Assembly: GCA_043731745.1 (NCBI GenBank)
Contig: JAYTIP010000119.1
Location: forward strand, 1 to 30,071
DNA length: 30,071 nucleotides
Reading direction: 5' to 3'
Source: Elusimicrobiota bacterium
GTDB lineage: Bacteria; Elusimicrobiota; Elusimicrobia; UBA1565; UBA9628
The notes under the pieces were generated by a model. That model was given only the letters and a program-made list of their open reading frames with translations, did not search any database and was not told the origin of the DNA. Positions 2,234-17,526 of this stretch are shown one piece after another (position 1 is the stretch's first letter; every line of letters begins with the position of its first letter). Both the position numbers and the translations under genes were made by a program.

Positions 2234-4138
2234 TTAAGGTTTGCTGAGGCGGCGGCTCGTCGCGTCCCAACCGAGGTAGCGGACGGACCGGCCGTCGTCG
2301 TACAGGAATCCGTCTTCAAGGGTCCGGAAGCTCTCCCAGCGAGGTAAAGCCCGCGTCGACTTGAGCACTCCGTCGTCGCCGGCCTCGACGAGCGCCCGGT
2401 CCCACAGCAACCAAACCCGTCCGCCGGCGCGGTGCAGCAGCCACGGCAGCGGATCAAGGGACGCGCCCTTCGGCCGCAGGCGACCGTAGCGCAAAGTCGA
2501 GACCTTCCCGTCGGTCCCGATGATCCCTAGGGCGTCGCCGGGTTGGTAGGCGTACAAGGTGCCGTCGGGCAGCGCGTAGAAGTCGCCGCGCTCCCGCCGA
2601 ACTCCCAGGCGCCAGGCCGTCGTCACGGTCCCATCCGCGCGGCACAGCGCCGCCGCCGTTCCGGAGGCGTCCTTGTACGGAATGAAGTAGGCGGGCTTGC
2701 CTCCGGCCCAGTGGGGGAAGACCGGACCGGCGTACAACGCCGGGCCCGGGAGTCTCCAGCGCCGCGCGCCCACGCGCAGGCACCGTTTGTCGCAATCCAC
2801 GACGCCCGCGCCGGCCGCTTTGACTGCGGTCTTGATCGCGTCGTTGAGACTCTTGTCGAACGGAGCCGCGGAGCCCCGGTGAATGAAGTCCTCCGCCGCA
2901 GCGTAGCTCGACTGGCTGATGCCGGTTTTGGGATCGACAAGGTACTTGGTCACGACGACGCGCCGGCCGACGACGGCCAGGTTACCCCACTCGTTGCGAG
3001 GCGACGGGCGTCCAAGCGTCATGGCTTCGCCCGTCTGGCTCCACAACTCGTCTCGAAGTGGCGTCACGCGATGAGCCCAGAGCCGTCCCGTCGAGTCGCG
3101 CAAGGTTCGGAACAGCCAGGCGCCCTCGAAGGGACGGAAAACCAGATCGTATACCCCCGATCTCTCCTCCGGCAGAACGACGCGGACGCCCTCCTTGCCG
3201 CCGAGCCAGATGCCGCCGCGCACGCTCATCAGCGCCGCGCTTCGCCCTGCGGCCGCGAGCGCTGCGGGCGTGGGGGAGGAATCCTCGAACCACGACTGGT
3301 AGGAAAACACGGGAGCCGGCTCCGCGAAGCGCAGCCGGGCGTCGAGGCCGCTCGCGATCGCTCCCGCCATGAGCCAGGTCGCGAGCGGTCCGGCGAGCAA
3401 CGCCGCGGCCGGGAAGGCCCACGCGCGGACGCGAGGTGACGGGCGCCGCTCCAGGCGCGCCGCCGCCGGCACCGCGACGAGCTTGACGAGCACGAGGAAG
3501 GCCAGCATCGCCGTCTCGTAGCCGGCCAATGACGAGACCCACTCGCCGTGCTCCATTCTCATGCCCAAGCACAGCCCGACACCGAAGCTCTCGATGATCA
3601 CGAGAGCGGGGCCGAGCAGGCCTCCGGCGACGCCGTGGCCGATCAGATAGGCGAGGACCCAGGACGCGGCCAGTACGTCCGCGATCATCAGAAGGAAAAA
3701 ATTCGTGACGGGCATGTTTTGCCAGAAGGGACGCCCCCAGCTGAACGCCTTGTCGGGGGCGATGAGGTACGGCGCCAGCGCGTTGCCGAACCACGCGCAA
3801 GCCAGAACGAACGCGGCCGTGATCGCGAGGAGAAAGCCCGCCGCCGTCAGCGAGGCGGCCGCGCGCCGCGTCGCTGAGGCGGGTAGCAGCGCCTCTATTC
3901 CCGCGTTGCCGGACGATGCCGTGCCGGAGCCGGCCGTCGCGCCGATAAGCGCCGCCGCGAAGGGCAGGCCGACGAAGGCCCAGCCGATGAGGATCGTCGA
4001 CAGGGCGTTGCCCGCCTCCATGCCTGTCGTCGAGGCGACCAGGCGGGCGACGGGTAAAGTGACGAGGAACGCGGCGACCACGCTCGCGGCCGCCAGCCGG
4101 TTTTTGCGGATTTCGAGCGACAGCAGGGGGAAGTTCAT
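2234..4138 (-). CDS. ABC-transporter permease-like membrane protein with large extracytoplasmic C-terminal domain
   Basis: Start MNFPLLSLEIRKNR at ATG 4138 overlaps the ATPase stop (ATGA). About 8 hydrophobic helices followed by a ~340-aa beta-rich soluble region. Confidence 0.65.
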   Translation of the reverse strand: MNFPLLSLEIRKNRLAAASVVAAFLVTLPVARLVASTTGMEAGNALSTILIGWAFVGLPFAAALIGATAGSGTASSGNAGIEALLPASATRRAAASLTAAGFLLAITAAFVLACAWFGNALAPYLIAPDKAFSWGRPFWQNMPVTNFFLLMIADVLAASWVLAYLIGHGVAGGLLGPALVIIESFGVGLCLGMRMEHGEWVSSLAGYETAMLAFLVLVKLVAVPAAARLERRPSPRVRAWAFPAAALLAGPLATWLMAGAIASGLDARLRFAEPAPVFSYQSWFEDSSPTPAALAAAGRSAALMSVRGGIWLGGKEGVRVVLPEERSGVYDLVFRPFEGAWLFRTLRDSTGRLWAHRVTPLRDELWSQTGEAMTLGRPSPRNEWGNLAVVGRRVVVTKYLVDPKTGISQSSYAAAEDFIHRGSAAPFDKSLNDAIKTAVKAAGAGVVDCDKRCLRVGARRWRLPGPALYAGPVFPHWAGGKPAYFIPYKDASGTAAALCRADGTVTTAWRLGVRRERGDFYALPDGTLYAYQPGDALGIIGTDGKVSTLRYGRLRPKGASLDPLPWLLHRAGGRVWLLWDRALVEAGDDGVLKSTRALPRWESFRTLEDGFLYDDGRSVRYLGWDATSRRLSKP

Positions 4139-5019
4139 CGGAGATCGCCTCCTTTGAGCGACAACAGGTGCGAAAAAGCCTTGTCGAGCGGCAGAGGCTC
4201 GACCGTGGGGGAGGACAGCGCTCCGCAGCCGAGCAGGCGCTCGCGCGTGGCGCGGTCGAGCACGGCCCAGGCGCGGACCAAGCCTTCGCCGGGGAGAGGC
4301 AGGGCGCCGGGCACGGCAGGGGGAGCGTCGGCCGAGCGTAGGCGGCCGCTGACGACGCAGCCCTCGGCGCGCAACGCGTCGAGCTCGTGAACCGCGACGA
4401 TCTTGCCGCCCGCCATGACCCACACCTCGTCGAGCAGGCCCGCCATCTCGTCCATCCGGTGGCTGGTCACCAGCACGGTCTTTCCGGCCTCGCCGAGTTC
4501 GCTGACGAGACCCGATAAAACCTCTTCGCGCACCAAGGCATCGAGGCCCGAGGTCGGCTCGTCCAGGAGATAGAGCGCGGGGTCGTGCGCGGCGGCGCAC
4601 ACCCAGCCGAGCTTGCCGAGCGTGCCTTTGCTGGCGCCTTCGATCCGCGTCTGCGGGTCGAGTCTCAGGCGCTTGCACAAGGCGGCGGCCCGGTCGGCGC
4701 TCCAGTTCTTAAAGAGGCTCGCGCGCAGCTCCAGGACGCCGGCGACGCTCATAAAGGAGTGAAAGCTCGGGCGCTCAGGCACGAAGCCGGCAAGCTGGCG
4801 AATCGCGCCGCTGCCGTCGGGGCGTAGCCCCAGAACCTCGATGTCGCCTTCGTCGGCGGCCAAGAGGTCGAGCAGGATCTTGAACAAGGTCGTCTTGCCC
4901 TCGCCGTTGCGTCCGAGCAGGCCGATGACCTTCCCTTGCTCCGCCGAGCCGGTCGCGCCGTCGAGCACTCGCTTGGCGCCGAAGGTCCGGGTCACGCCGC
5001 TGAAATCGAGAGTCTTCAT
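4135..5019 (-). CDS. ABC transporter ATP-binding protein (YtrB/ABC-2 type)
   Basis: Walker A GRNGEGKTT, variant signature ASKGT, Walker B LYLLDEPT, H-loop VTSH; start overlaps the GntR stop. Confidence 0.92.
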   Translation of the reverse strand: MKTLDFSGVTRTFGAKRVLDGATGSAEQGKVIGLLGRNGEGKTTLFKILLDLLAADEGDIEVLGLRPDGSGAIRQLAGFVPERPSFHSFMSVAGVLELRASLFKNWSADRAAALCKRLRLDPQTRIEGASKGTLGKLGWVCAAAHDPALYLLDEPTSGLDALVREEVLSGLVSELGEAGKTVLVTSHRMDEMAGLLDEVWVMAGGKIVAVHELDALRAEGCVVSGRLRSADAPPAVPGALPLPGEGLVRAWAVLDRATRERLLGCGALSSPTVEPLPLDKAFSHLLSLKGGDLR

Positions 5020-5387
5020 TTGTCCTCCTTCTCCGCGCGGCGCGTCAGCGCCGCGATGTCGTCCCAGTCGAGCCCGCCGCGCCGGGCCTGGCGCAGGGCC
5101 TCGCGTAATCCCTCGCGCACCTCCGCCAGGCCGTCCGAGGCCTTGCGCAGCGCCGCCGCCGCTACGACCGTGCCCTCGCCGCGCTTGGTCTCGAGCACGC
5201 CCTCGAGCACGAGCTCGCGGATGGCGCGGGCGACCGTGTTGGGGTTGACCTTGAGGGCCTCGGCGAGCGGGCGGATCGAGGGCGCGGGTTCGCCCGGCTT
5301 CAGGTTGCCGCGCGCGATCAAGCCGCGCAGGCCGGACTTGATCTGCTCGTTGAGAGGCGTCGGCGACAGGGGATCGATGCGGAGCAT
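5016..5387 (-). CDS. GntR family transcriptional regulator, YtrA subfamily
   Basis: 123 aa, wHTH PSIRPLAEALKVNPNTVARA..EL..EG...TKRGEGT with short C-terminal helix; heads an ABC operon. Confidence 0.92.
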   Translation of the reverse strand: MLRIDPLSPTPLNEQIKSGLRGLIARGNLKPGEPAPSIRPLAEALKVNPNTVARAIRELVLEGVLETKRGEGTVVAAAALRKASDGLAEVREGLREALRQARRGGLDWDDIAALTRRAEKEDK

Positions 5388-5449: not shown

Positions 5450-5532
5450 GGGGTCGTTGCGCGGCGTCCATGGGAAATCCGAAGCCGGGATGGTATCTTG
5501 GCGGCAGCCGCTCTTTCGCGGCGGAGGAACCT

Positions 5533-6141
5533 ATGAAACTCAAACCGACGTGCCTGATGGCCGTCCTCGCGCTGACCTTCGCCGTTTGCGGGGCGCGCGC
5601 CGATGAGGAGAACGGGAAGTCCGACGCCTGGATCACCACCAAGGTGAAGGCCGAGCTCGCCACGCACAAGAACGTGAGCGCGTTCAACACCAAGGTCAAT
5701 ACGACGGACGGAGTCGTGACCTTGCGCGGCAAGGTCGGTTCCACGGCGGAGAAGGAGCTCGCGGAGAGCTACGTGAAGGGAGTCGAAGGCGTGCGCTCGG
5801 TCGACAATGAGCTCGTCGTCAGCGACAAGCACTCGAACAAGCGCATGCACGACCGCGGCGCGCACCATCGCGGAGCCGACGATCGCGCGGCGGACGGCGA
5901 TAAGGCGATCGGAGATAAAGCGCTCGACAGCATGAGCGACGGCGGGTTAACCGCGCGGGTGAAGACGGCTCTTCTCGCCAATCCCGGCACGAGCGCGTAT
6001 CACACGGAAGTCGACTCCAACAACGGCGCGGTGATCATCAGCGGTACCGCGAAGACCGACGCGGAGCGCGACCTGGCGGAGCGGACGGTGCGCGGCGTGA
6101 GCGGCGTGAAGTCCGTCGAGAACCGGATCGAAGTGCACTAA
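5533..6141 (+). CDS. BON domain protein (OsmY-like), two BON domains
   Basis: GGAGG SD before ATG 5533, signal peptide, two copies of D..IT..VK..L...V.T..G.V.L.G with a His/Asp-rich linker. Confidence 0.88.
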   Translation: MKLKPTCLMAVLALTFAVCGARADEENGKSDAWITTKVKAELATHKNVSAFNTKVNTTDGVVTLRGKVGSTAEKELAESYVKGVEGVRSVDNELVVSDKHSNKRMHDRGAHHRGADDRAADGDKAIGDKALDSMSDGGLTARVKTALLANPGTSAYHTEVDSNNGAVIISGTAKTDAERDLAERTVRGVSGVKSVENRIEVH

Positions 6142-6152
6142 GCGGTCGATTT

Positions 6153-6188
6153 CGGCGCGCGGGTCCTTGAGGGGGGATCCGCGCGCCG
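6153..6188. terminator. GC-rich stem-loop between convergent genes (likely terminator)
   Basis: CGGCGCGCGGGTCC...GGATCCGCGCGCCG, 14-bp stem with one G-U pair; U-tract weak. Confidence 0.5.
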
Positions 6189-6189
6189 T

Positions 6190-6975
6190 CTATCGTCCGG
6201 GCGCGAACGCCGCGAGCCACTTCTCCTTTTGCTTGGGTCCGTCGTGACGCGCGTACGCGGTGCCCGTCTCGAAGGCCGCGGCCCTAAACAGCGTCGAGGC
6301 GGGACGCTTCTCGAGCTGCACGATGGCCCCATACGACACGAACATCTGGCCGGTGATCATCGAGAGCAAGCGCGCGCCGTCGTCCATGAAGTTCTCCTCC
6401 TCGGGGTGGGGGCCGCCCATGCCGATGCCGACCTGATGGCCCACGCCGTGAATCGAAAACAATGCCGCCGACTCTGCAGGGGTCAACGCGCCCTTTGCCG
6501 TCTTTGAAAAGGAAAAGGCGGCCGAGACACCGACCATCGAGAACTTACCCTCTCCCGTAGAGCTGAAGTCCGACAACTCGGGGTTGCCCCCTTCGGGCGT
6601 CCAGGCGCGTTCGAGCCACTGCGCGTCCTCCTTGGAGATCAGCCCGTTGGCCGGGGCCAGGAGCAACGCGTTCTTCTTATCGCCGAGGATCACGAGCTTG
6701 CCCATGGCGTCGGCGGTCTCCCGCGAGAGCTTTTTTCCCGTGTAGATGACGAAGCGCGTCCCGACGCCGAGAGACTTGAGATCCTTGTCCGCCGCGGCGA
6801 CGATCGCCTCGAGCCCCGCACGACCGAACTTGGCCTGCGCCTCGGGAAGCGCCCAGGCGATGATTTTGTCGCCCGGCCGCTTCACGCTGACGCCCTCGGA
6901 CATGATCCAAGGATCGGCGGGCGCCTGCGCCCCCGCCACGCCCGCCAACGCCGCGATCAGCGCGAGTGCTTTCAT
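6190..6975 (-). CDS. Hypothetical secreted protein with degenerate zinc-metallopeptidase-like motif
   Basis: Signal peptide MKALALIAALAGVAGA; HGVGHQVG..H..NFM resembles HExxHxxGxxH plus Met-turn; own promoter at 6982-7009. Confidence 0.65.
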   Translation of the reverse strand: MKALALIAALAGVAGAQAPADPWIMSEGVSVKRPGDKIIAWALPEAQAKFGRAGLEAIVAAADKDLKSLGVGTRFVIYTGKKLSRETADAMGKLVILGDKKNALLLAPANGLISKEDAQWLERAWTPEGGNPELSDFSSTGEGKFSMVGVSAAFSFSKTAKGALTPAESAALFSIHGVGHQVGIGMGGPHPEEENFMDDGARLLSMITGQMFVSYGAIVQLEKRPASTLFRAAAFETGTAYARHDGPKQKEKWLAAFAPGR

Positions 6976-6981
6976 CGCGTG

Positions 6982-7044
6982 ATTATAAGGGAACGGGGAG
7001 AATCGTCAAGGACCCTTGACGAATCCGGTCCGGGGTTTTACGCT
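6982..7044. promoter_or_regulatory. Back-to-back divergent sigma70 promoters, both apparently leaderless
   Basis: Minus: TTGACG 7004-7009 - N16 - TATAAT 6982-6987, 6 nt, ATG 6975. Plus: TTGACG 7016-7021 - N17 - TACGCT 7039-7044, 6 nt, ATG 7051. Confidence 0.7.
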
Positions 7045-7050
7045 TTAGTC

Positions 7051-7305
7051 ATGGACGCCTTGATCTTGCCGCTGGCCGCGACGGTCCTTCTCGTTCCTCT
7101 CCTGTATCTCGCCGTGCCCCCGTTGCGAGGGGCCTGGCGGCGGAGAAATGAGCCCAAACGCGCGTTGGTCCCGGCCCCAAAGAAGGCAGCCCTGCTCATG
7201 CCGTCCGCGAGCGAGACGGCGCAGGCCGTCGAGCGTTTCCACCGCGTCCTGATGCGCACCGATCTCGCGGATTTTCTCCGCCCCGATTCTTCGCGCGGGG
7301 CTTGA
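7051..7305 (+). CDS. Small membrane-anchored hypothetical protein (84 aa)
   Basis: ATG 7051 lies 6 nt after a -10 box; N-terminal hydrophobic helix ALILPLAATVLLVPLLYLAV followed by basic WRRR. Confidence 0.5.
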   Translation: MDALILPLAATVLLVPLLYLAVPPLRGAWRRRNEPKRALVPAPKKAALLMPSASETAQAVERFHRVLMRTDLADFLRPDSSRGA

Positions 7306-7330
7306 CGAAAGGGGGTCGCGGGGTTATCCT
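7302..7330 (+). promoter_or_regulatory. Sigma70 promoter of the 45-aa ORF
   Basis: TTGACG 7302-7307 - N17 - TATCCT 7325-7330 (same hexamers as the promoter at 2193-2221). Confidence 0.6.
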
Positions 7331-7363
7331 CCCGTCGACGCGAACATCTCCCGGAGAACCCCG

Positions 7364-7501
7364 ATGACCATCACCCTTTTGGCCGCCGTTCCCGCCGCGA
7401 TCTTGACCGCGATGTACCTCTACGAGCGCCGCGAGTTGACGCCTCTGCGCGCCCGCGCGGCCCGCTCCACGCGCGACAACGCATTGCGCGGCCGCCGCTA
7501 G
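7364..7501 (+). CDS. 45-aa single-TM small protein (absent from the ORF track)
   Basis: MTITLLAAVPAAILTAMYLYERRELTPLRARAARSTRDNALRGRR*; GGAG SD, own promoter, stop shares CTAG with the mutM stop. Confidence 0.55.
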   Translation: MTITLLAAVPAAILTAMYLYERRELTPLRARAARSTRDNALRGRR

Positions 7502-8280
7502 CGCTGACAGTTCGGGCAGTAAGCGCTGGCGCGCCCGCCGATGCTCTTGCGCGTGCCGATGACGGGCTTGCCGCAGGTCCCGCAGGCCTTGCGCCCGTAC
7601 ACCATCACGCCCATCTGCATGCGCCCCGGGCGTCCGAGCGGATCGAGGAAGGCCTCGTCGTCGAGCGTCGCGCCGCCGGCCTCCACGCCCGTGCTCAAGA
7701 TATTCCGGCAGGCGACCGCCAGCGCGTCCGACTCCGCCCGTGAGAGCGACTTGCCGGCGCGTCCGGGGCGGACCTTCGCCGCGTGCAGGGCCTCGGTGGC
7801 GTAGATGTTTCCCAGGCCCGCGATCAGCTTCTGGTCCATGATCAGCGCTTTGACGGGCGCGGTGCGCTTGCGCAGGATGCGCCACAGGTAATCAGGCGTG
7901 AACTCGGGGTCCATCGGCTCGGGACCGAGTTGAGGCAAGGGGCAGCCCACGCGTCCGAAGCGGCGCGAGTCGTGAAAGCGCACGGCCTCGGTGCCGATCC
8001 ACATTTGGAAGCGCACATGGGGGCTTTCGCCGCCGACCGTGATGCGCCCGGACATCCCCAAGTGAAAGATCACCTCGCCACGGCCTTCGATGACGACGAT
8101 CAGGTACTTGCCGCGGCGCTTGAAGGCCGCGATCACGCCGCCGGTCAGGATTTTGACGGCGGCGAGCGGCGGGGCGCGGTAGAAGGTGGGCTTGCCGAGC
8201 GCGACGGCCGTGATCGTCTGGCCTGCGTAGCGCTCCTGGAGGACGCGGCGGACGGTTTCGACCTCGGGAAGCTCCGGCAT
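7498..8280 (-). CDS. mutM: Formamidopyrimidine-DNA glycosylase / AP lyase (Fpg)
   Basis: N-terminal MPELPEVET, RRGKYL, H2TH GLGNIYATEAL, C-terminal zinc finger CGTC..GRASAYCPNCQ. Confidence 0.95.
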   Translation of the reverse strand: MPELPEVETVRRVLQERYAGQTITAVALGKPTFYRAPPLAAVKILTGGVIAAFKRRGKYLIVVIEGRGEVIFHLGMSGRITVGGESPHVRFQMWIGTEAVRFHDSRRFGRVGCPLPQLGPEPMDPEFTPDYLWRILRKRTAPVKALIMDQKLIAGLGNIYATEALHAAKVRPGRAGKSLSRAESDALAVACRNILSTGVEAGGATLDDEAFLDPLGRPGRMQMGVMVYGRKACGTCGKPVIGTRKSIGGRASAYCPNCQR

Positions 8281-8816
8281 CAGCGCCCGCAGGAGCCCTT
8301 ATTCCAGGGCAGCTTGGCCAATATCAGGGCCATCGTGCAGATGTCGGTCACGGCGGCGAACACGAGGCCGCAGCCCACGAAGAGCGCCAGAAAAAGCCAC
8401 TTGAAGTTGACCATCAGGCCCAAAGTCGTACCGACGATCACTAAGGAGCCCGCGATGAAGCGCACTTGGCGCTCGAGGGACCAGACGCGGCTCGTGCCGC
8501 GGATCACGGGCTTGCCCGCCCCGGCCCAGGCCTCGATGCCGCCGTCGATGACGCGGATGTCCTTGACGCCGAGCGCATGGAGCTTCTCGGCGGCCTTCGC
8601 CGCGCGCGCGCCCGAGCGGCACAGCAGAAACACGGGGCGGCCGCGGTCCACGCGGTCGGCCAAGGCGTCGAGGCGGGAGAGGGGCAGGTTCAGGGCGCCT
8701 TCGACGCGGAGCGCGTCGATCTCCATGGTCTCGCGCACGTCCACGAGCTGGCCGACGCCCTTCTCCTCGAGCGTACGATGGGCCTCTTCAGGTCCCACGC
8801 GGCTGTAGGCGCTCAC
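8280..8816 (-). CDS. Rhodanese domain plus DUF2892 membrane domain (YgaP-like)
   Basis: LVDVRE, active-site loop LCRSGAR, GGIEAW, then WSLERQVRFIAG and two TM helices with Cys. Confidence 0.88.
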   Translation of the reverse strand: MSAYSRVGPEEAHRTLEEKGVGQLVDVRETMEIDALRVEGALNLPLSRLDALADRVDRGRPVFLLCRSGARAAKAAEKLHALGVKDIRVIDGGIEAWAGAGKPVIRGTSRVWSLERQVRFIAGSLVIVGTTLGLMVNFKWLFLALFVGCGLVFAAVTDICTMALILAKLPWNKGSCGR

Positions 8817-8819
8817 GGA

Positions 8820-10238
8820 CTAGTACTGAGGAACGGAGGGATCGATCGCTTCCGACCAGGCGTTGATCCCGCCGACCACATTGGTCGCGTCGTAGCCCTT
8901 CTCCCTCAGAAACTGAACCGCTTTGGCCGAGCGCCCGCCCATCTTGCAGTGCACGATGATCTTGGCGGACTTGTCGATCTCGCCGAAGCGCTCGGGCAGC
9001 TTGCCCAGGGGGATCAAGGTCGAGCCTTCGATCTTGGCGACCTCGTACTCGTGGGGCTCGCGGACATCAAGCAAAACGAACTTTTCCTTCTTGTCGAGCT
9101 TGGCTTTGAGATCCTGAACCGAGATTTCGGGGATGGTGGACACGGGCTTCTCCTTTAAACCGCAGAACGCTTCGTAATCGATCGGGGCCTTGATGGTCGG
9201 ATTTTCCGAGCACACGGGGCAAGAGGGATTTTTCTTCACCTTCAGCGTGCGCCAGCTCTGCTCGAGGGCGTCATACAGCATCAGGCGGCCCGACAGCGAA
9301 CGCCCGATGCCGAGGATGAGCTTGAGCGTCTCGATGGCCTGCATCGTGCCGATGACGCCGGGTAGCACGCCCAGCACGCCGGCCTCCGAGCAGGACGGCA
9401 CGAGGCCGGGGGGCGGGGGCTCCGGGTATAAACAGCGGTAGCAGGGGCCGTCTTTCAATCCGAACACGGCGAGCTGGCCTTCGAAGCGGAAGATCGAGCC
9501 GTAGGCGTTGGGCTTGCCGGTGAGCACGCAGGCGTCATTGACGAGGTAGCGCGTCGCGAAATTGTCGGTGCCGTCGGCGATCACATCGTATTTCTTGAAC
9601 AGCTCCACGGCATTGGCGGAGGTCAACCTCATTTCGTGCAATTCGACGCTGACGAAAGGATTCAGTCCCTTAATCCGTTTCTCGGCGGACTTGAGCTTCG
9701 AGGTCCCGACCGAGGCCGTATCATGAATGATCTGCCGTTGGAGATTCGACTCGTCGACTTTATCGAAGTCCACGATGCCGATGCGCCCCACGCCGGCCGC
9801 GGCCAGGTACAGGGCCAAGGGCGAGCCCAGCCCGCCCGCGCCGACGCACAGCACCGACGCGTTCTTGAGCTTCTTCTGCCCTTCGGGGCCGACCTCGGGC
9901 ATGATCAGGTGGCGGTCGTAGCGTGCCAGCTCGGCTTTCGTCAGCTCGAGCTCGGCGACGGTCGAGCCGCCCGCGATCGCGGGGACGATCAAGATCGTGT
10001 CGCCGTCTTTGACCGGCGTCGCGAGGCCTTGTTTGTCGCGGGCGTCGTCCTCGTTGACATAGACGTTGACGAAGGAGCGAAGCTTGCCGTCGGGGGTCAT
10101 CAGCTGCTGCTTGAGGCGATCGTGCTGCTTGAAAAGCTGCTCGAGCGCCTCGCCGGCGGTCTTGGCGTCGACGGTGATCTTCTCCTGCTTGTCCGCGAAA
10201 GCCCGCAGGGCCGTCGGCAATCTGATCTCAATGCTCAT
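8820..10238 (-). CDS. moeB: Fusion of ubiquitin-like sulfur carrier (MoaD/CysO-like, residues 1-91 ending AIAGG), ThiF/MoeB E1 adenylyltransferase and rhodanese (MoeZ-type)
   Basis: Beta-grasp N-terminus to PAIAGG; GAGGLG, DGTDNF, CYRC, PSCSEAG, CPVC; C-terminal LDVRE..HCKMGGRS. Confidence 0.92.
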   Translation of the reverse strand: MSIEIRLPTALRAFADKQEKITVDAKTAGEALEQLFKQHDRLKQQLMTPDGKLRSFVNVYVNEDDARDKQGLATPVKDGDTILIVPAIAGGSTVAELELTKAELARYDRHLIMPEVGPEGQKKLKNASVLCVGAGGLGSPLALYLAAAGVGRIGIVDFDKVDESNLQRQIIHDTASVGTSKLKSAEKRIKGLNPFVSVELHEMRLTSANAVELFKKYDVIADGTDNFATRYLVNDACVLTGKPNAYGSIFRFEGQLAVFGLKDGPCYRCLYPEPPPPGLVPSCSEAGVLGVLPGVIGTMQAIETLKLILGIGRSLSGRLMLYDALEQSWRTLKVKKNPSCPVCSENPTIKAPIDYEAFCGLKEKPVSTIPEISVQDLKAKLDKKEKFVLLDVREPHEYEVAKIEGSTLIPLGKLPERFGEIDKSAKIIVHCKMGGRSAKAVQFLREKGYDATNVVGGINAWSEAIDPSVPQY

Positions 10239-10241
10239 AAT

Positions 10242-10688
10242 TTAGCCTTCCAGAACGATCTCTTCTTCGATAAACGAACGGCCATCTTCCGTTCTCTGCC
10301 AGGACCGGGAGTCCACGACCTTGCCATCCTTCACTTGAAGAATCCAATAACTGCAACATGGCATCGCCATCGTCAAATCAAACGGCGAGGGCCACGCCGG
10401 CACCGTGGGATGCGAGTGGAAGAACCCGATCACGCCCCGCCCGCTTCCCGACAGCTCCATTTCGACGCGCGCCATCGTCTTCGGATCGATCAGGTACTTG
10501 TTCGTCTTCGCCGAGGCGTCCCAGCCGTTGGGCAGGGGCCGCGCCTCGTCGATTTGCAGCGCGCGCCCCATCGCGTCGAAATTATCGGGGATCTTCCCGA
10601 TGAGCAGGCCGCAGCCTTCCTCGGGGAAGGCCTTCTCCGCCGTCTTCACCGCGATCTCCTCGACCGCGCGGTTGAGGGTCAGGCTCAC
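10242..10688 (-). CDS. JAB/MPN+ (JAMM, Mec+-like) metallopeptidase
   Basis: PEEGCGLLIG and GFFHSHP..AWPS.FD motifs; GTG 10688 overlaps the cysM stop (GTGA). Confidence 0.9.
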   Translation of the reverse strand: MSLTLNRAVEEIAVKTAEKAFPEEGCGLLIGKIPDNFDAMGRALQIDEARPLPNGWDASAKTNKYLIDPKTMARVEMELSGSGRGVIGFFHSHPTVPAWPSPFDLTMAMPCCSYWILQVKDGKVVDSRSWQRTEDGRSFIEEEIVLEG

Positions 10689-15501: not shown

Positions 15502-16071
15502 GTGCTACCAGTGTTGTTGAGTGCTGTCTTCTACATCGCGATTTTATTTTCCTCGTCGTGCGGCCCGGCGGCGAAGCCGGCGAAGGCTCTTCCCGATTTT
15601 TCTTTGACGGCGGTGACGATCGACGGCACCTCGCCGTTCGAACTGCGCACTCTGCGCGGCCGCGTCTGGATCGCCGATTTCGTGTACACGCGCTGCGCGG
15701 GGCCGTGCCCGATGCTCACCGCGAACATGGCGGGGCTGCAAAAGCGCCTGCCGAAATCGGTCGGCCTGCTGTCCTTCACGGTCGATCCCGATCATGATTC
15801 GCCCGAGGTGCTCACCCTCTACGCGCGGCAGTTCAAAGCCGATCCGCAACGCTGGTTTTTCCTGACGGGCGAGAAGTCCGAGCTCGTGCGGGTCATCCGA
15901 GACGGTTTCCTGCTGCCCGTCGTCGAGAGCGCGACGGCGCAGCCGGGCCAAAACGTGGCGCACTCGTCGAAGTTCGTGCTGATCGATTCGAAGGCGCGCC
16001 TCATTGGCTGGTACGACGGCGACGACGAGGCGTCCTTGGCGAAGCTCGAGGCGGACGCGAAGAAATTGTGA
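15502..16071 (+). CDS. SCO1/SenC family copper chaperone
   Basis: ADFVYTRCAGPCP (CxxxC), SFTVDPDHD, HSSKFVLID; GTG with AGAGGA SD 8 nt upstream; possible lipoprotein Cys (FSSSC). Confidence 0.92.
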   Translation: MLPVLLSAVFYIAILFSSSCGPAAKPAKALPDFSLTAVTIDGTSPFELRTLRGRVWIADFVYTRCAGPCPMLTANMAGLQKRLPKSVGLLSFTVDPDHDSPEVLTLYARQFKADPQRWFFLTGEKSELVRVIRDGFLLPVVESATAQPGQNVAHSSKFVLIDSKARLIGWYDGDDEASLAKLEADAKKL

Positions 16072-16097
16072 TCTAGGCGCGGCGGCGGCCGGCTCGT

Positions 16098-16940
16098 TTA
16101 ATACTTATGGTGGCAATAGCCGATAGCATCGAAAGAGATGCTGGGTTCGACCATCGCGTTCCCGGTGGCCTTATCGATCCACTGAGTGGTGTGAATCGCG
16201 GCGCCCCCGGAACCGATGAATTTCTTGTCGTCGTAAAAATCCCTGTTGCTGCCCTCCGCCCAATTGCCCAGGTGCGCTTTGTCTCCCCCAAAAAGGCCGT
16301 ATTTTGAAACGGCTTCATCGCAGCTCACAACCCACGGCCCGACGAACACGTACTTCCAACGAGCGAACGCCGTTTCGGAGTCTGGGAAGCCCGGTCCAAA
16401 TGAATTGACGAACTCGTTTGACATCGGTTTCTTCGCCCGTGCAAATTGGTCCTTTAAATATTGAACGCGCTTCTCCTTTGGCTGGCATATGGAGAACTTG
16501 GGATTCGTCGGGCACGCTTTCTTGGCTTGCTCATCCAGGGACTTCTCGTATCTTTCCTCGGCGGTCTCCTTCGTGCTCTCCTTCGCCGAGCTCGAGCCCG
16601 GCCCACGCTTCTTACTCGCGGCGCTCGTTAGCGGGTCGGCGCTTGGTCTATTGTTGCCCCCGCCGGAGTTTTGCCGGACCTGCCCGTCGCCGGTGATCGG
16701 GGGCGGCGCGTCTTGATTGGCGGAGAATTCCATGATTCCGGGGTGGACGACTCGGATAACGCGAGGGCCGTGGTCCACGGCCGGCGCATCCGCCGGCACG
16801 GACGCCTCCGCCTGCCCGTTCGCCGTATGGGTCTCGTAGTGTTTCCCTTGCTGAGCGAACGAGCGGAGGGAGCACAGCATGAGAACTGCGGAGGCTCGTG
16901 ACAAAGTCGAGATGTCCCAGCTTTGGCTCCTGACATTCAT
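16098..16940 (-). CDS. Hypothetical, probably secreted protein (islet cargo)
   Basis: 280-aa ORF with GGAG SD and promoter; signal-like N-terminus, low-complexity P/G/S/K linker, Cys-containing C-terminal domain at about 53% GC (213/400 counted over 16101-16500). Confidence 0.65.
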   Translation of the reverse strand: MNVRSQSWDISTLSRASAVLMLCSLRSFAQQGKHYETHTANGQAEASVPADAPAVDHGPRVIRVVHPGIMEFSANQDAPPPITGDGQVRQNSGGGNNRPSADPLTSAASKKRGPGSSSAKESTKETAEERYEKSLDEQAKKACPTNPKFSICQPKEKRVQYLKDQFARAKKPMSNEFVNSFGPGFPDSETAFARWKYVFVGPWVVSCDEAVSKYGLFGGDKAHLGNWAEGSNRDFYDDKKFIGSGGAAIHTTQWIDKATGNAMVEPSISFDAIGYCHHKY

Positions 16941-16976
16941 AGCTGCTCCGTGGCCGCTTCGGGCTGACTTGCTGCT

Positions 16977-17004
16977 AGTATAAAGCCTTTCCGGAGATAA
17001 TCAA
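16977..17004 (-). promoter_or_regulatory. Promoter of the islet gene
   Basis: TTGATT 16999-17004 - N16 - TATACT 16977-16982. Confidence 0.5.
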
Positions 17005-17037
17005 GGCGGCGGCCATTAGGCTTGGGCGAATTCTCGG

Positions 17038-17526
17038 CTAAGCGCGGCGGCGGCCGGCTTTATATAGGAAGGTCGCGAGCACCGCGATGAGCACGGCCAG
17101 GACGGCTTGGAAGGTCAGGAAGCAGGCGACCTTGAGGACGGCGAATTCGGGGGAGACGAAGCGCACGAGCCAGCCCGAGGCCTCGCCGATGAAGGACGAG
17201 CCGAAGCCGAGGCCGATGATCCACTTCTTGGTCCGGTCTTCCCACGGGGCGAAGATCGCGAGGTGGGTCAGCAAAAGCACCATCACGCCCATCGTCGCGA
17301 GGTGCGCGTGGCTGACCTCGAGCAAGGACGCCGCGCTGCGCGGCTGGGAGTACTCCTCGGCCGAGCCCAGGTAATAGGCCTGCACGGAGGACGGCGCGAG
17401 CGACATGCGCTGAAAATACATCGCGCCGTTGGTGACCCAGAGCCCGGCCGCGAAGAGCAAGGTCCAGGACAAGGTCATCCGCATCAGCGGATTGTTCTGG
17501 AAGCCGCCCGTCTGCATGTATTTCAC
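17038..17526 (-). CDS. Four-TM membrane protein with HxH...H helix (possible cytochrome b-like)
   Basis: Four hydrophobic segments; LLEVSHAHLATMGVMVLLLTH; last gene of the apbE operon. Start is GTG 17526 or ATG 17517. Confidence 0.7.
   Translation of the reverse strand: MKYMQTGGFQNNPLMRMTLSWTLLFAAGLWVTNGAMYFQRMSLAPSSVQAYYLGSAEEYSQPRSAASLLEVSHAHLATMGVMVLLLTHLAIFAPWEDRTKKWIIGLGFGSSFIGEASGWLVRFVSPEFAVLKVACFLTFQAVLAVLIAVLATFLYKAGRRRA

Follow-up and report, generated by a model that had tools for sequence, protein, structure and literature searches.

A recombinase-less single-gene cassette at the 3' end of a protein-coding gene in an Elusimicrobiota bacterium, a probable case of insertion with long, variable target duplication

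Little is understood of how genes that lack mobility functions enter bacterial chromosomes in which genes are densely packed. For restriction-modification systems, Furuta et al. 2010 (PMC2853133), with reference to Nobusato et al. 2000 (Gene 259:99), reported insertion with long, variable target duplication in the absence of other mobile elements: the cargo nuclease is suspected of making the breaks, some of the repeats overlap gene 3' ends, and a cut-off of 30 bp was set against site-specific recombination. Cis-mobilizable elements (CIMEs) are integrase-less elements that keep attL and attR (PMC5704250). The minimal mobile elements of Neisseria comprise alternative contents between conserved genes, exchanged by transformation and homologous recombination (for the term see PMC3787668, PMC3082526), and SPDIR (short-patch double illegitimate recombination) is on record in Acinetobacter baylyi (bioRxiv 10.1101/2023.11.22.568220). 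Here we describe a cassette of ~945 bp in a stretch of 30,071 nucleotides from an uncultured Elusimicrobiota bacterium (assembly GCA_043731745.1). This stretch, hereafter the window, is all of contig C119 (JAYTIP010000119.1) in a genome of 3.02 Mb and 427 contigs with 91% completeness (G000); G001 and further numbers denote congener genomes, L0xx compared loci or contigs and P000x proteins. The cassette consists of a promoter and the gene of a predicted secreted protein of 280 aa (ORF280, P0001), has no recombinase, was acquired horizontally and inserted at the end of a gene, and probably entered with duplication of its target, as in the class described by Furuta et al.

The insertion target is the gene of a 162-aa membrane protein (P0002; 17038-17526, minus strand; precomputed Pfam match PF27139, Aq_1264_TM), convergent with an SCO1/SenC gene (15502-16071, plus strand; Pfam PF02630, E 8.7e-21). 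The last 22 bases of the membrane-protein gene (right copy, CTAAGCGCGGCGGCGGCCGGCT at 17038-17059; feature on the minus strand) recur as a left copy (CTAGGCGCGGCGGCGGCCGGCT at 16073-16094; feature on the minus strand), with 21 of 22 positions identical and the starts 965 bp apart; extension of the repeat gives 31 nt at 84%. From both copies the minus strand reads AGRRRA and a stop codon, and the sole mismatch (GCC/GCT) is synonymous (Ala). The right copy, a GCT-TAG variant, is the 3' end now in use, whereas the left copy has the ancestral GCC-TAG form of the relatives and is the displaced original end of the gene; it starts 1 nt after the SCO stop codon (TGA, 16069-16071). The 943 bp between the copies (16095-17037, minus strand, delimited by blastn, alignment and GC content) hold only ORF280 (16098-16940, minus strand), whose stop codon (16098-16100) lies 3 nt off the left copy, and a sigma-70-like promoter site (TTGATT-16-TATACT, 16977-17004, minus strand). 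Their GC content is 0.59, most 200-nt windows nearby having ~0.61-0.68, and drops to 0.51-0.58 in the 3' half of ORF280. An initial annotation made from the letters of the window had noted the recurring gene end, the single lower-GC reading frame and the promoter, and all of these are confirmed here. The same structure recurs, 99.9-100% identical, in four more assemblies made independently and of two kinds (ENA, Logan), and also in contigs of four public runs, and is therefore not an assembly artefact.

At up to three mismatches the 22-mer pattern has two sites in the window, with none expected from 100 shuffles. Over the whole genome, at up to two mismatches, it is found only at these two sites and at one 2-mismatch site on contig C249, which lies within a coding region and was rejected as a chance GC-rich match; the initial annotation had proposed a search of the genome for other copies. 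The 22-mer shows neither RNA structure nor a terminator, its folding being no better than that of shuffles. Among isolated direct repeats within 4 kb genome-wide, the present one ranks only ~36th of 648, most others in G000 being motifs of neighbouring paralogues or repeated promoters; its significance thus rests on placement and comparative evidence, not on the repeat alone.

Comparison within the genus reveals the junction in its empty state. The membrane-protein gene is present in 23 of the 36 genus genomes searched, and in at least seven congeners it is directly convergent with SCO at a stop-to-stop gap of -4 to 10 nt: 1 nt in G029, G014 and G016, -4 in G001 and G021, 7 in G030 and 10 in G033; in G012 the gap is 62 nt. 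Without the insert and one repeat copy, the G000 sequence reads ...TGA-T-CTAGGCGCGGCGGCGGCCGGCT-TTATATAGG and is collinear with the empty sites, including the 1-nt spacer, the CTAGGCG tail and the CTAGGCGCGGCGG tail. Both copies of the 22-mer equal the tail of the membrane-protein gene as found in G021, G014, G016 and others. ORF280 itself occurs in one of 38 genus genomes, namely G000, and in none of 24 further, more distant relatives. At this 3' end of a protein-coding gene the cassette is a true insertion, and the empty sites bear out the geometry that the initial annotation had proposed, with the gene restored and its displaced end left on the far side; a gene shared by relatives without the repeat and without any empty site is not what the genus shows, since none of the 37 congeners has the gene and empty sites exist. 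Joints of an empty site or of an excised circle were sought in the Logan contigs of the four runs and none was seen, all contigs carrying the filled allele; the assembler drops rare variants.

It is extremely improbable that the repeat arose by chance beside a gene that is ancestral here and was lost in the relatives. The 22-mer is GC-rich and of low complexity, and isolated repeats as long as this are no rarity across the genome; however, it begins exactly at the stop codon of one gene, and its other copy recreates the 1-nt junction of the relatives' empty sites. Moreover, the gene is missing from all 37 other genus genomes, and in contigs carrying the cassette at another site, described below, the boundaries of homology coincide with the repeats and synonymous divergence (dS) of the cassette is ten times below that of a housekeeping gene.

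Other congeners have other contents at the SCO/membrane-gene junction, as the initial annotation had thought possible. The inserts of G004, G005, G011, G015, G017, G020, G010 and G006 measure 0.4-6.3 kb at a GC content of 0.64-0.71 and encode a 151-aa ferritin/Dps-like protein, a Phenol_MetA_deg outer-membrane protein, or a TonB receptor with ExbD and PepSY genes. Neither a duplication of the membrane-gene tail nor an integrase was found in them. As ordinary metal-homeostasis or outer-membrane genes of genome-average GC content, they were rejected as instances of the same phenomenon: the junction is a variable spot, and the duplication is found in G000 only. A perfect-looking palindrome, TTATTGAGATACAATCTCAATAA, stands just after the SCO stop in G011 (L028, ~6000-6030) and G004 (L032, ~5010-5040), where it precedes the ferritin/Dps-like and outer-membrane genes and is likely a metal-regulator operator.

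A search of 5.8 billion protein clusters recovers only three other full-length relatives of ORF280, P0003 (80% identity), P0004 (79%) and P0005 (68%). Their contigs (L038/L039, L040 and L037) hold the cassette at a second site, with an EamA transporter gene upstream on the same strand and a convergent gene of a trpG-type glutamine amidotransferase. The trpG protein of L037 is 72-89% identical to those of genus members, which points to unsampled congeners as the source of the carrier contigs. The promoter TTGATT-16-TATACT is kept in the copies at this site (L037, L038, L040). In blastn, L038 matches the window at 86.7% over 959 nt, from 17036 down to 16087, that is, from repeat to repeat, whereas the sequences on either side show no relation. 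In each of the two locations an upstream gene of the same direction ends in a stop codon, and the cassette follows it immediately with its promoter end. GTDB genome contigs, JGI metagenome contigs, plasmids, phages and IMG/VR yielded no more copies of the cassette, and the genus holds no other copy of its 97-nt promoter module.

The EamA-trpG site, too, is known empty, both in many congeners and in G000 (L041). In G001, G002, G011, G033 and G025 (L054, L045, L044, L057 and L063, respectively) the convergent EamA and trpG genes share 74-122 nt; the last 24-40 codons of EamA are here antisense to the 3' end of trpG. L038 carries the overlap region twice, at 49-116 (end of EamA) and 1076-1140 (end of trpG), as a duplication of ~65 nt with an exact core of 27 nt (GCGCCGTCGAGGAAGTTCTTCAGCATC), and in L040 this duplication is also present but more degenerate. 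The repeats of L038 and L040 match the single overlap of the empty-site congeners G001, G002, G011 and G029. Thus the length of the target copy differs by site, 22 nt (membrane-gene tail) vs ~65 nt (EamA/trpG overlap), and the two sequences are unrelated.

Two further features were seen at the EamA-trpG junction. In L038 (95-135) and L040 (360-400) the duplicated trpG-antisense segment, together with 19-20 extra bases, forms a 9-bp GC hairpin followed by TTT(A/G), resembling a terminator. In G000 (contig C284, L041:1421-1497), G029 (L049), G020 (L061) and G032 (L050) the junction is filled by a palindromic element of 72-77 nt (GTGTCAGGCCT...AGGCCTGACA type), which could be a bidirectional terminator or resemble repetitive extragenic palindromes (REP) or miniature inverted-repeat transposable elements (MITE).

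The second site also bears on the origin of the unit. According to the initial annotation, the insert was either a minimal cassette or what is left of a larger element. The former stands, in that the insert is a single-gene, recombinase-less cassette that is mobile, as judged from its second site and its horizontal transfer. The latter, in which an integrative element once larger would have shed its integrase along with its other genes, is very improbable: remnants without an integrase but with attL and attR retained are on record (CIMEs; PMC5704250), but the unit measures ~945 bp with equal ends at two unrelated sites, where parallel decay to identical boundaries is unlikely, and no larger relative was found in the 5.8 billion protein clusters, in plasmids, phages or IMG/VR.

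Divergence between G000 and L038 differs strongly between cassette and neighbour, with a dS of 0.20 for the cassette ORF vs 1.9 for trpG (over 114 codons) and a nucleotide identity of 89% vs 75%. In the trpG tree, G000 falls outside a well-supported group of L037, L038 and several congeners with an empty EamA-trpG site. The dS deficit and the tree placement indicate that the cassette moved between lineages long after their split, that is, by horizontal transfer. Carriage at EamA-trpG is itself patchy.

No mobility gene is present in or beside the insert, and ORF280 has no match in Pfam, NCBIfam, PHROG or PADLOC. The cassette lacks terminal inverted repeats, and its duplications (22 and ~65 nt) are not of fixed length; an insertion sequence (IS), MITE or transposon was rejected on these grounds. 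An integron gene cassette was likewise rejected, given that the insert has its own promoter and that neither an attC-like palindrome after ORF280 nor an intI gene nearby was found. The genome of G000 encodes four tyrosine recombinases (Phage_integrase family), all on other contigs, two of Xer size and two of 420-450 aa (C372 and C425). The initial annotation had proposed a search for orphan recombinases; nothing ties these genes to the SCO/membrane-gene site. On C425, a low-GC island (5500-9800; 0.47-0.54 vs 0.65 in the flanks) includes a gene of a tyrosine recombinase given there as 405 aa (8538-9755, minus strand), and a direct repeat of 27 nt (TAACGCAGACGATCTGCTGCCGCCGCT) occurs at 5541 and 6199 of this contig.

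Site-specific integration in trans, similar to that of CIMEs, would make the 22-mer the att core of an integrase encoded elsewhere, e.g. on C372 or C425, with a circular cassette recombining at the 3' end of the gene. This corresponds to the att-site mechanism of the initial annotation, which finds no support here and which we regard as quite unlikely. The arrangement does have the classic attL/attR geometry at a gene 3' end, with repeats that take in the target gene's end, and 22 bp is a typical length of core identity; the genome has its four Phage_integrase-family genes, one of them in the C425 island, and the cassette ends are conserved between both sites. The CIMEs of Streptococcus thermophilus beside ICESt1/ICESt3 likewise lie at a 3' gene end, that of fda. 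Against this, the repeats derive from the target and differ between the sites, the one at EamA-trpG being ~65 nt long, unrelated to the 22-mer and copied from that target; a third copy of the 22-mer is absent from the genome, the ends show no inverted repeats resembling binding sites, and no integrase-bearing element stands at the SCO/membrane-gene junction in any congener examined, the inserts found there included.

We therefore return to insertion with target duplication, for which the junctions suggest a route. The ~945-bp cassette of promoter and secreted-protein gene would have come from a congener that had it between EamA and trpG, and would have entered the Aq_1264_TM gene within its final 22 bases, where 1 nt separates it from the convergent SCO gene. 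The 22 bases would thereby have been duplicated, so that a full end (right copy) stays with the membrane-protein gene while its original end lies cut off beside SCO (left copy). Host replication or repair may have joined the incoming DNA at two short microhomologies with recipient positions staggered by ~22 nt, which would lead to a duplication, not a deletion; as candidate routes we consider a template switch at a fork and the annealing of an incoming single strand as in double illegitimate recombination, reportedly described in Acinetobacter baylyi by Huelter & Wackernagel in 2008. After insertion, the cassette promoter would express the secreted protein.

This microhomology joining is proposed from the junction sequences alone. 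At the ORF-distal junction, GCCGGCC or AGCCGGCC is common to the cassette end of L038/L040 (TAARCRRGCCGGCC) and the membrane-gene tail (AAAGCCGGCCGCC); the right junction falls within GCCGGCC. On the promoter side, G000 (GCGCTTAGCCGAGAAT) and L040 (GGGCTTTGCCGAGAAT) are alike across the stop codon; the left junction falls within G(C/G)GCTT(A/T)GCCGAGAAT, a stretch that L040 has as well. Where the two 22-mer copies differ, the right one has T, and so does the L040/L038 sequence.

The same junctions might be explained by a de novo event in an unsampled strain, from which the G000 lineage received either (a) a fragment anchored by the donor's membrane-protein gene and joined illegitimately at its far end, at AGCCGGCC (homology-facilitated illegitimate recombination), or (b) a circle, excised repeat by repeat, for whose re-entry one crossover within the 22-mer would have sufficed, as in Campbell-type integration. 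Non-ancestral T in the right, gene-side copy and ancestral C in the left, SCO-side copy are expected if the gene side came with donor DNA; the far junction has an 8-nt match, and direct repeats permit excision. However, a cassette behind a homologue of the membrane-protein gene is found in G000 alone, 22 nt are marginal for a RecA-dependent crossover, and anchored acquisition merely shifts the origin of the duplication one step back. We consider this course of events unlikely.

Several points weigh against insertion by microhomology-guided joining as set out above. GC-rich matches of 7-8 nt are not rare in a genome of 65% GC, and the true donor is not among the sampled genomes. A search for Ku found none in this genome of 91% completeness, which suggests that classical non-homologous end joining is not available. 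The duplication of 22 nt is below the 30-bp threshold that Furuta et al. set against site-specific recombination. Finally, that the unit has equal boundaries at two sites is better accounted for by a dedicated mechanism which recognises ends than by chance joins, and is the chief argument for such an activity. A pathway of this kind, encoded by the host or in trans, would recognise the cassette ends, insert at convergent junctions right after the stop of a gene on the same strand and copy tens of target bases, so that the duplication would be no accident of repair; we judge it improbable. If it were true, a cassette with nuclease-free, secreted and harmless-looking cargo would be a clean substrate for its study, as the pathway would need nothing from the cargo. 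Selection may explain why the 74-nt EamA/trpG overlap had to be duplicated, but alone it cannot account for the 22-nt duplication, because a clean insertion in the 1-nt gap needs none.

A genome-wide scan of G000 for isolated direct repeats did not reveal further cassettes; the best other candidates, on C186 and C205, are not target duplications at gene ends and were rejected. On C186, a 35-nt repeat with TGGAAC-N5-TTGC-like boxes (sigma-54 promoter type) stands directly upstream of two ORF starts 2.5 kb apart (8049-8083 and 10582-10616). On C205, a 41-nt direct repeat (3164-3204 and 4275-4315, 1111 nt apart) covers what by eye resembles the 5' end of a tRNA gene (minus strand) and the region upstream of it; a tRNA promoter may have been duplicated here, or an element may have left a scar.

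The protein encoded by ORF280 consists of a Sec-type signal peptide (...SLRSFA/QQ, the slash marking the putative cleavage site), judged by eye from the sequence, a low-complexity linker and a rare, Cys-containing C-terminal domain of ~155 aa (residues ~126-279; window 16098-16565). An exhaustive HMMER search with this domain against 1.84 billion representatives of 50%-identity clusters returned 11 proteins only at E-values up to 0.001, and all the named ones belong to Bacteriovorax, including B. stolpii. In these proteins, of 320-890 aa, the domain is located at or near the C-terminus; two of them have PG_binding_1, one of them with a TIG domain in addition, and one gene lies beside a Peptidase_M23 gene. 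For the domain, the ratio of nonsynonymous to synonymous divergence lies at 0.09-0.14 in the majority of pairs and at 0.34 between G000 and L038, values that indicate a functional gene under purifying selection. An AlphaFold2 model of the domain from a 16-row alignment is confident (pLDDT 90.4, pTM 0.68). Foldseek finds no relative of it in PDB (best E 0.22, TM < 0.2) or among the viral models of BFVD (best E 0.16). Invariant residues are Gly, Trp, Phe and two Cys, with no conserved His. A papain-like or NlpC/P60 hydrolase, suggested by a weak, insignificant ervatamin match (E 0.6) in a PDB profile search and by a Cys at a helix start, was rejected for want of a conserved His and of a fold match; the conserved Cys are more likely disulfides of a secreted protein. 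From the domain partners, a role in the cell envelope is a guess. As for the surroundings of the insert, its neighbours are SCO, RNR and a flavinylation operon, and the membrane-protein gene is the last of an ApbE-porin-FMN_bind operon.

With one non-nuclease cargo at two sites, each with its own duplication and with empty sites, and with a tenfold dS deficit, the locus argues that the duplication step comes from the host or from a trans-acting factor. Two junction pairs are now available for testing microhomology models, and the cargo adds a rare, confidently folding secreted domain without structural relative, which it has in common mainly with predatory Bacteriovorax.

Among the known systems, the minimal mobile elements of Neisseria are similar in that the contents of the SCO/membrane-gene junction vary among congeners without mobility genes; they differ in having no target duplications and a single locus, whereas the present cassette occupies two loci with duplications. 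SPDIR shares the joining of foreign DNA at two microhomologies without a dedicated recombinase. However, it is described for short patches, and an insert of 943 bp with a 22-nt duplication goes beyond what is shown there, so that it may serve as a mechanism by analogy only. CIMEs are likewise integrase-less, bounded by direct repeats into which a protein-coding gene extends with its 3' end, and leave the target gene intact. In contrast to them, no cognate integrase element was found at this place in any relative, and the repeat at the second site is of another sequence and length, hence not an att core. Insertion with long target duplication agrees with the present case in the small insert without integrase or transposase, the empty site in relatives, the two direct repeats that copy a single-copy target and are unique in the genome, the repeat length that varies by event with some repeats overlapping a gene 3' end, and an insert GC content that is off the genome average. 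The differences lie in the cargo, here a secreted protein with its own promoter and not a restriction-modification system or nuclease; in the duplication, 22 bp at the membrane-protein gene, under the 30-bp cut-off, and ~65 bp at EamA-trpG; in the occurrence of one cargo at two sites with two different duplications; and in the host, an uncultured genus of Elusimicrobiota. The cassette probably belongs to this already known, mechanistically unexplained class rather than being an integrase-type island.

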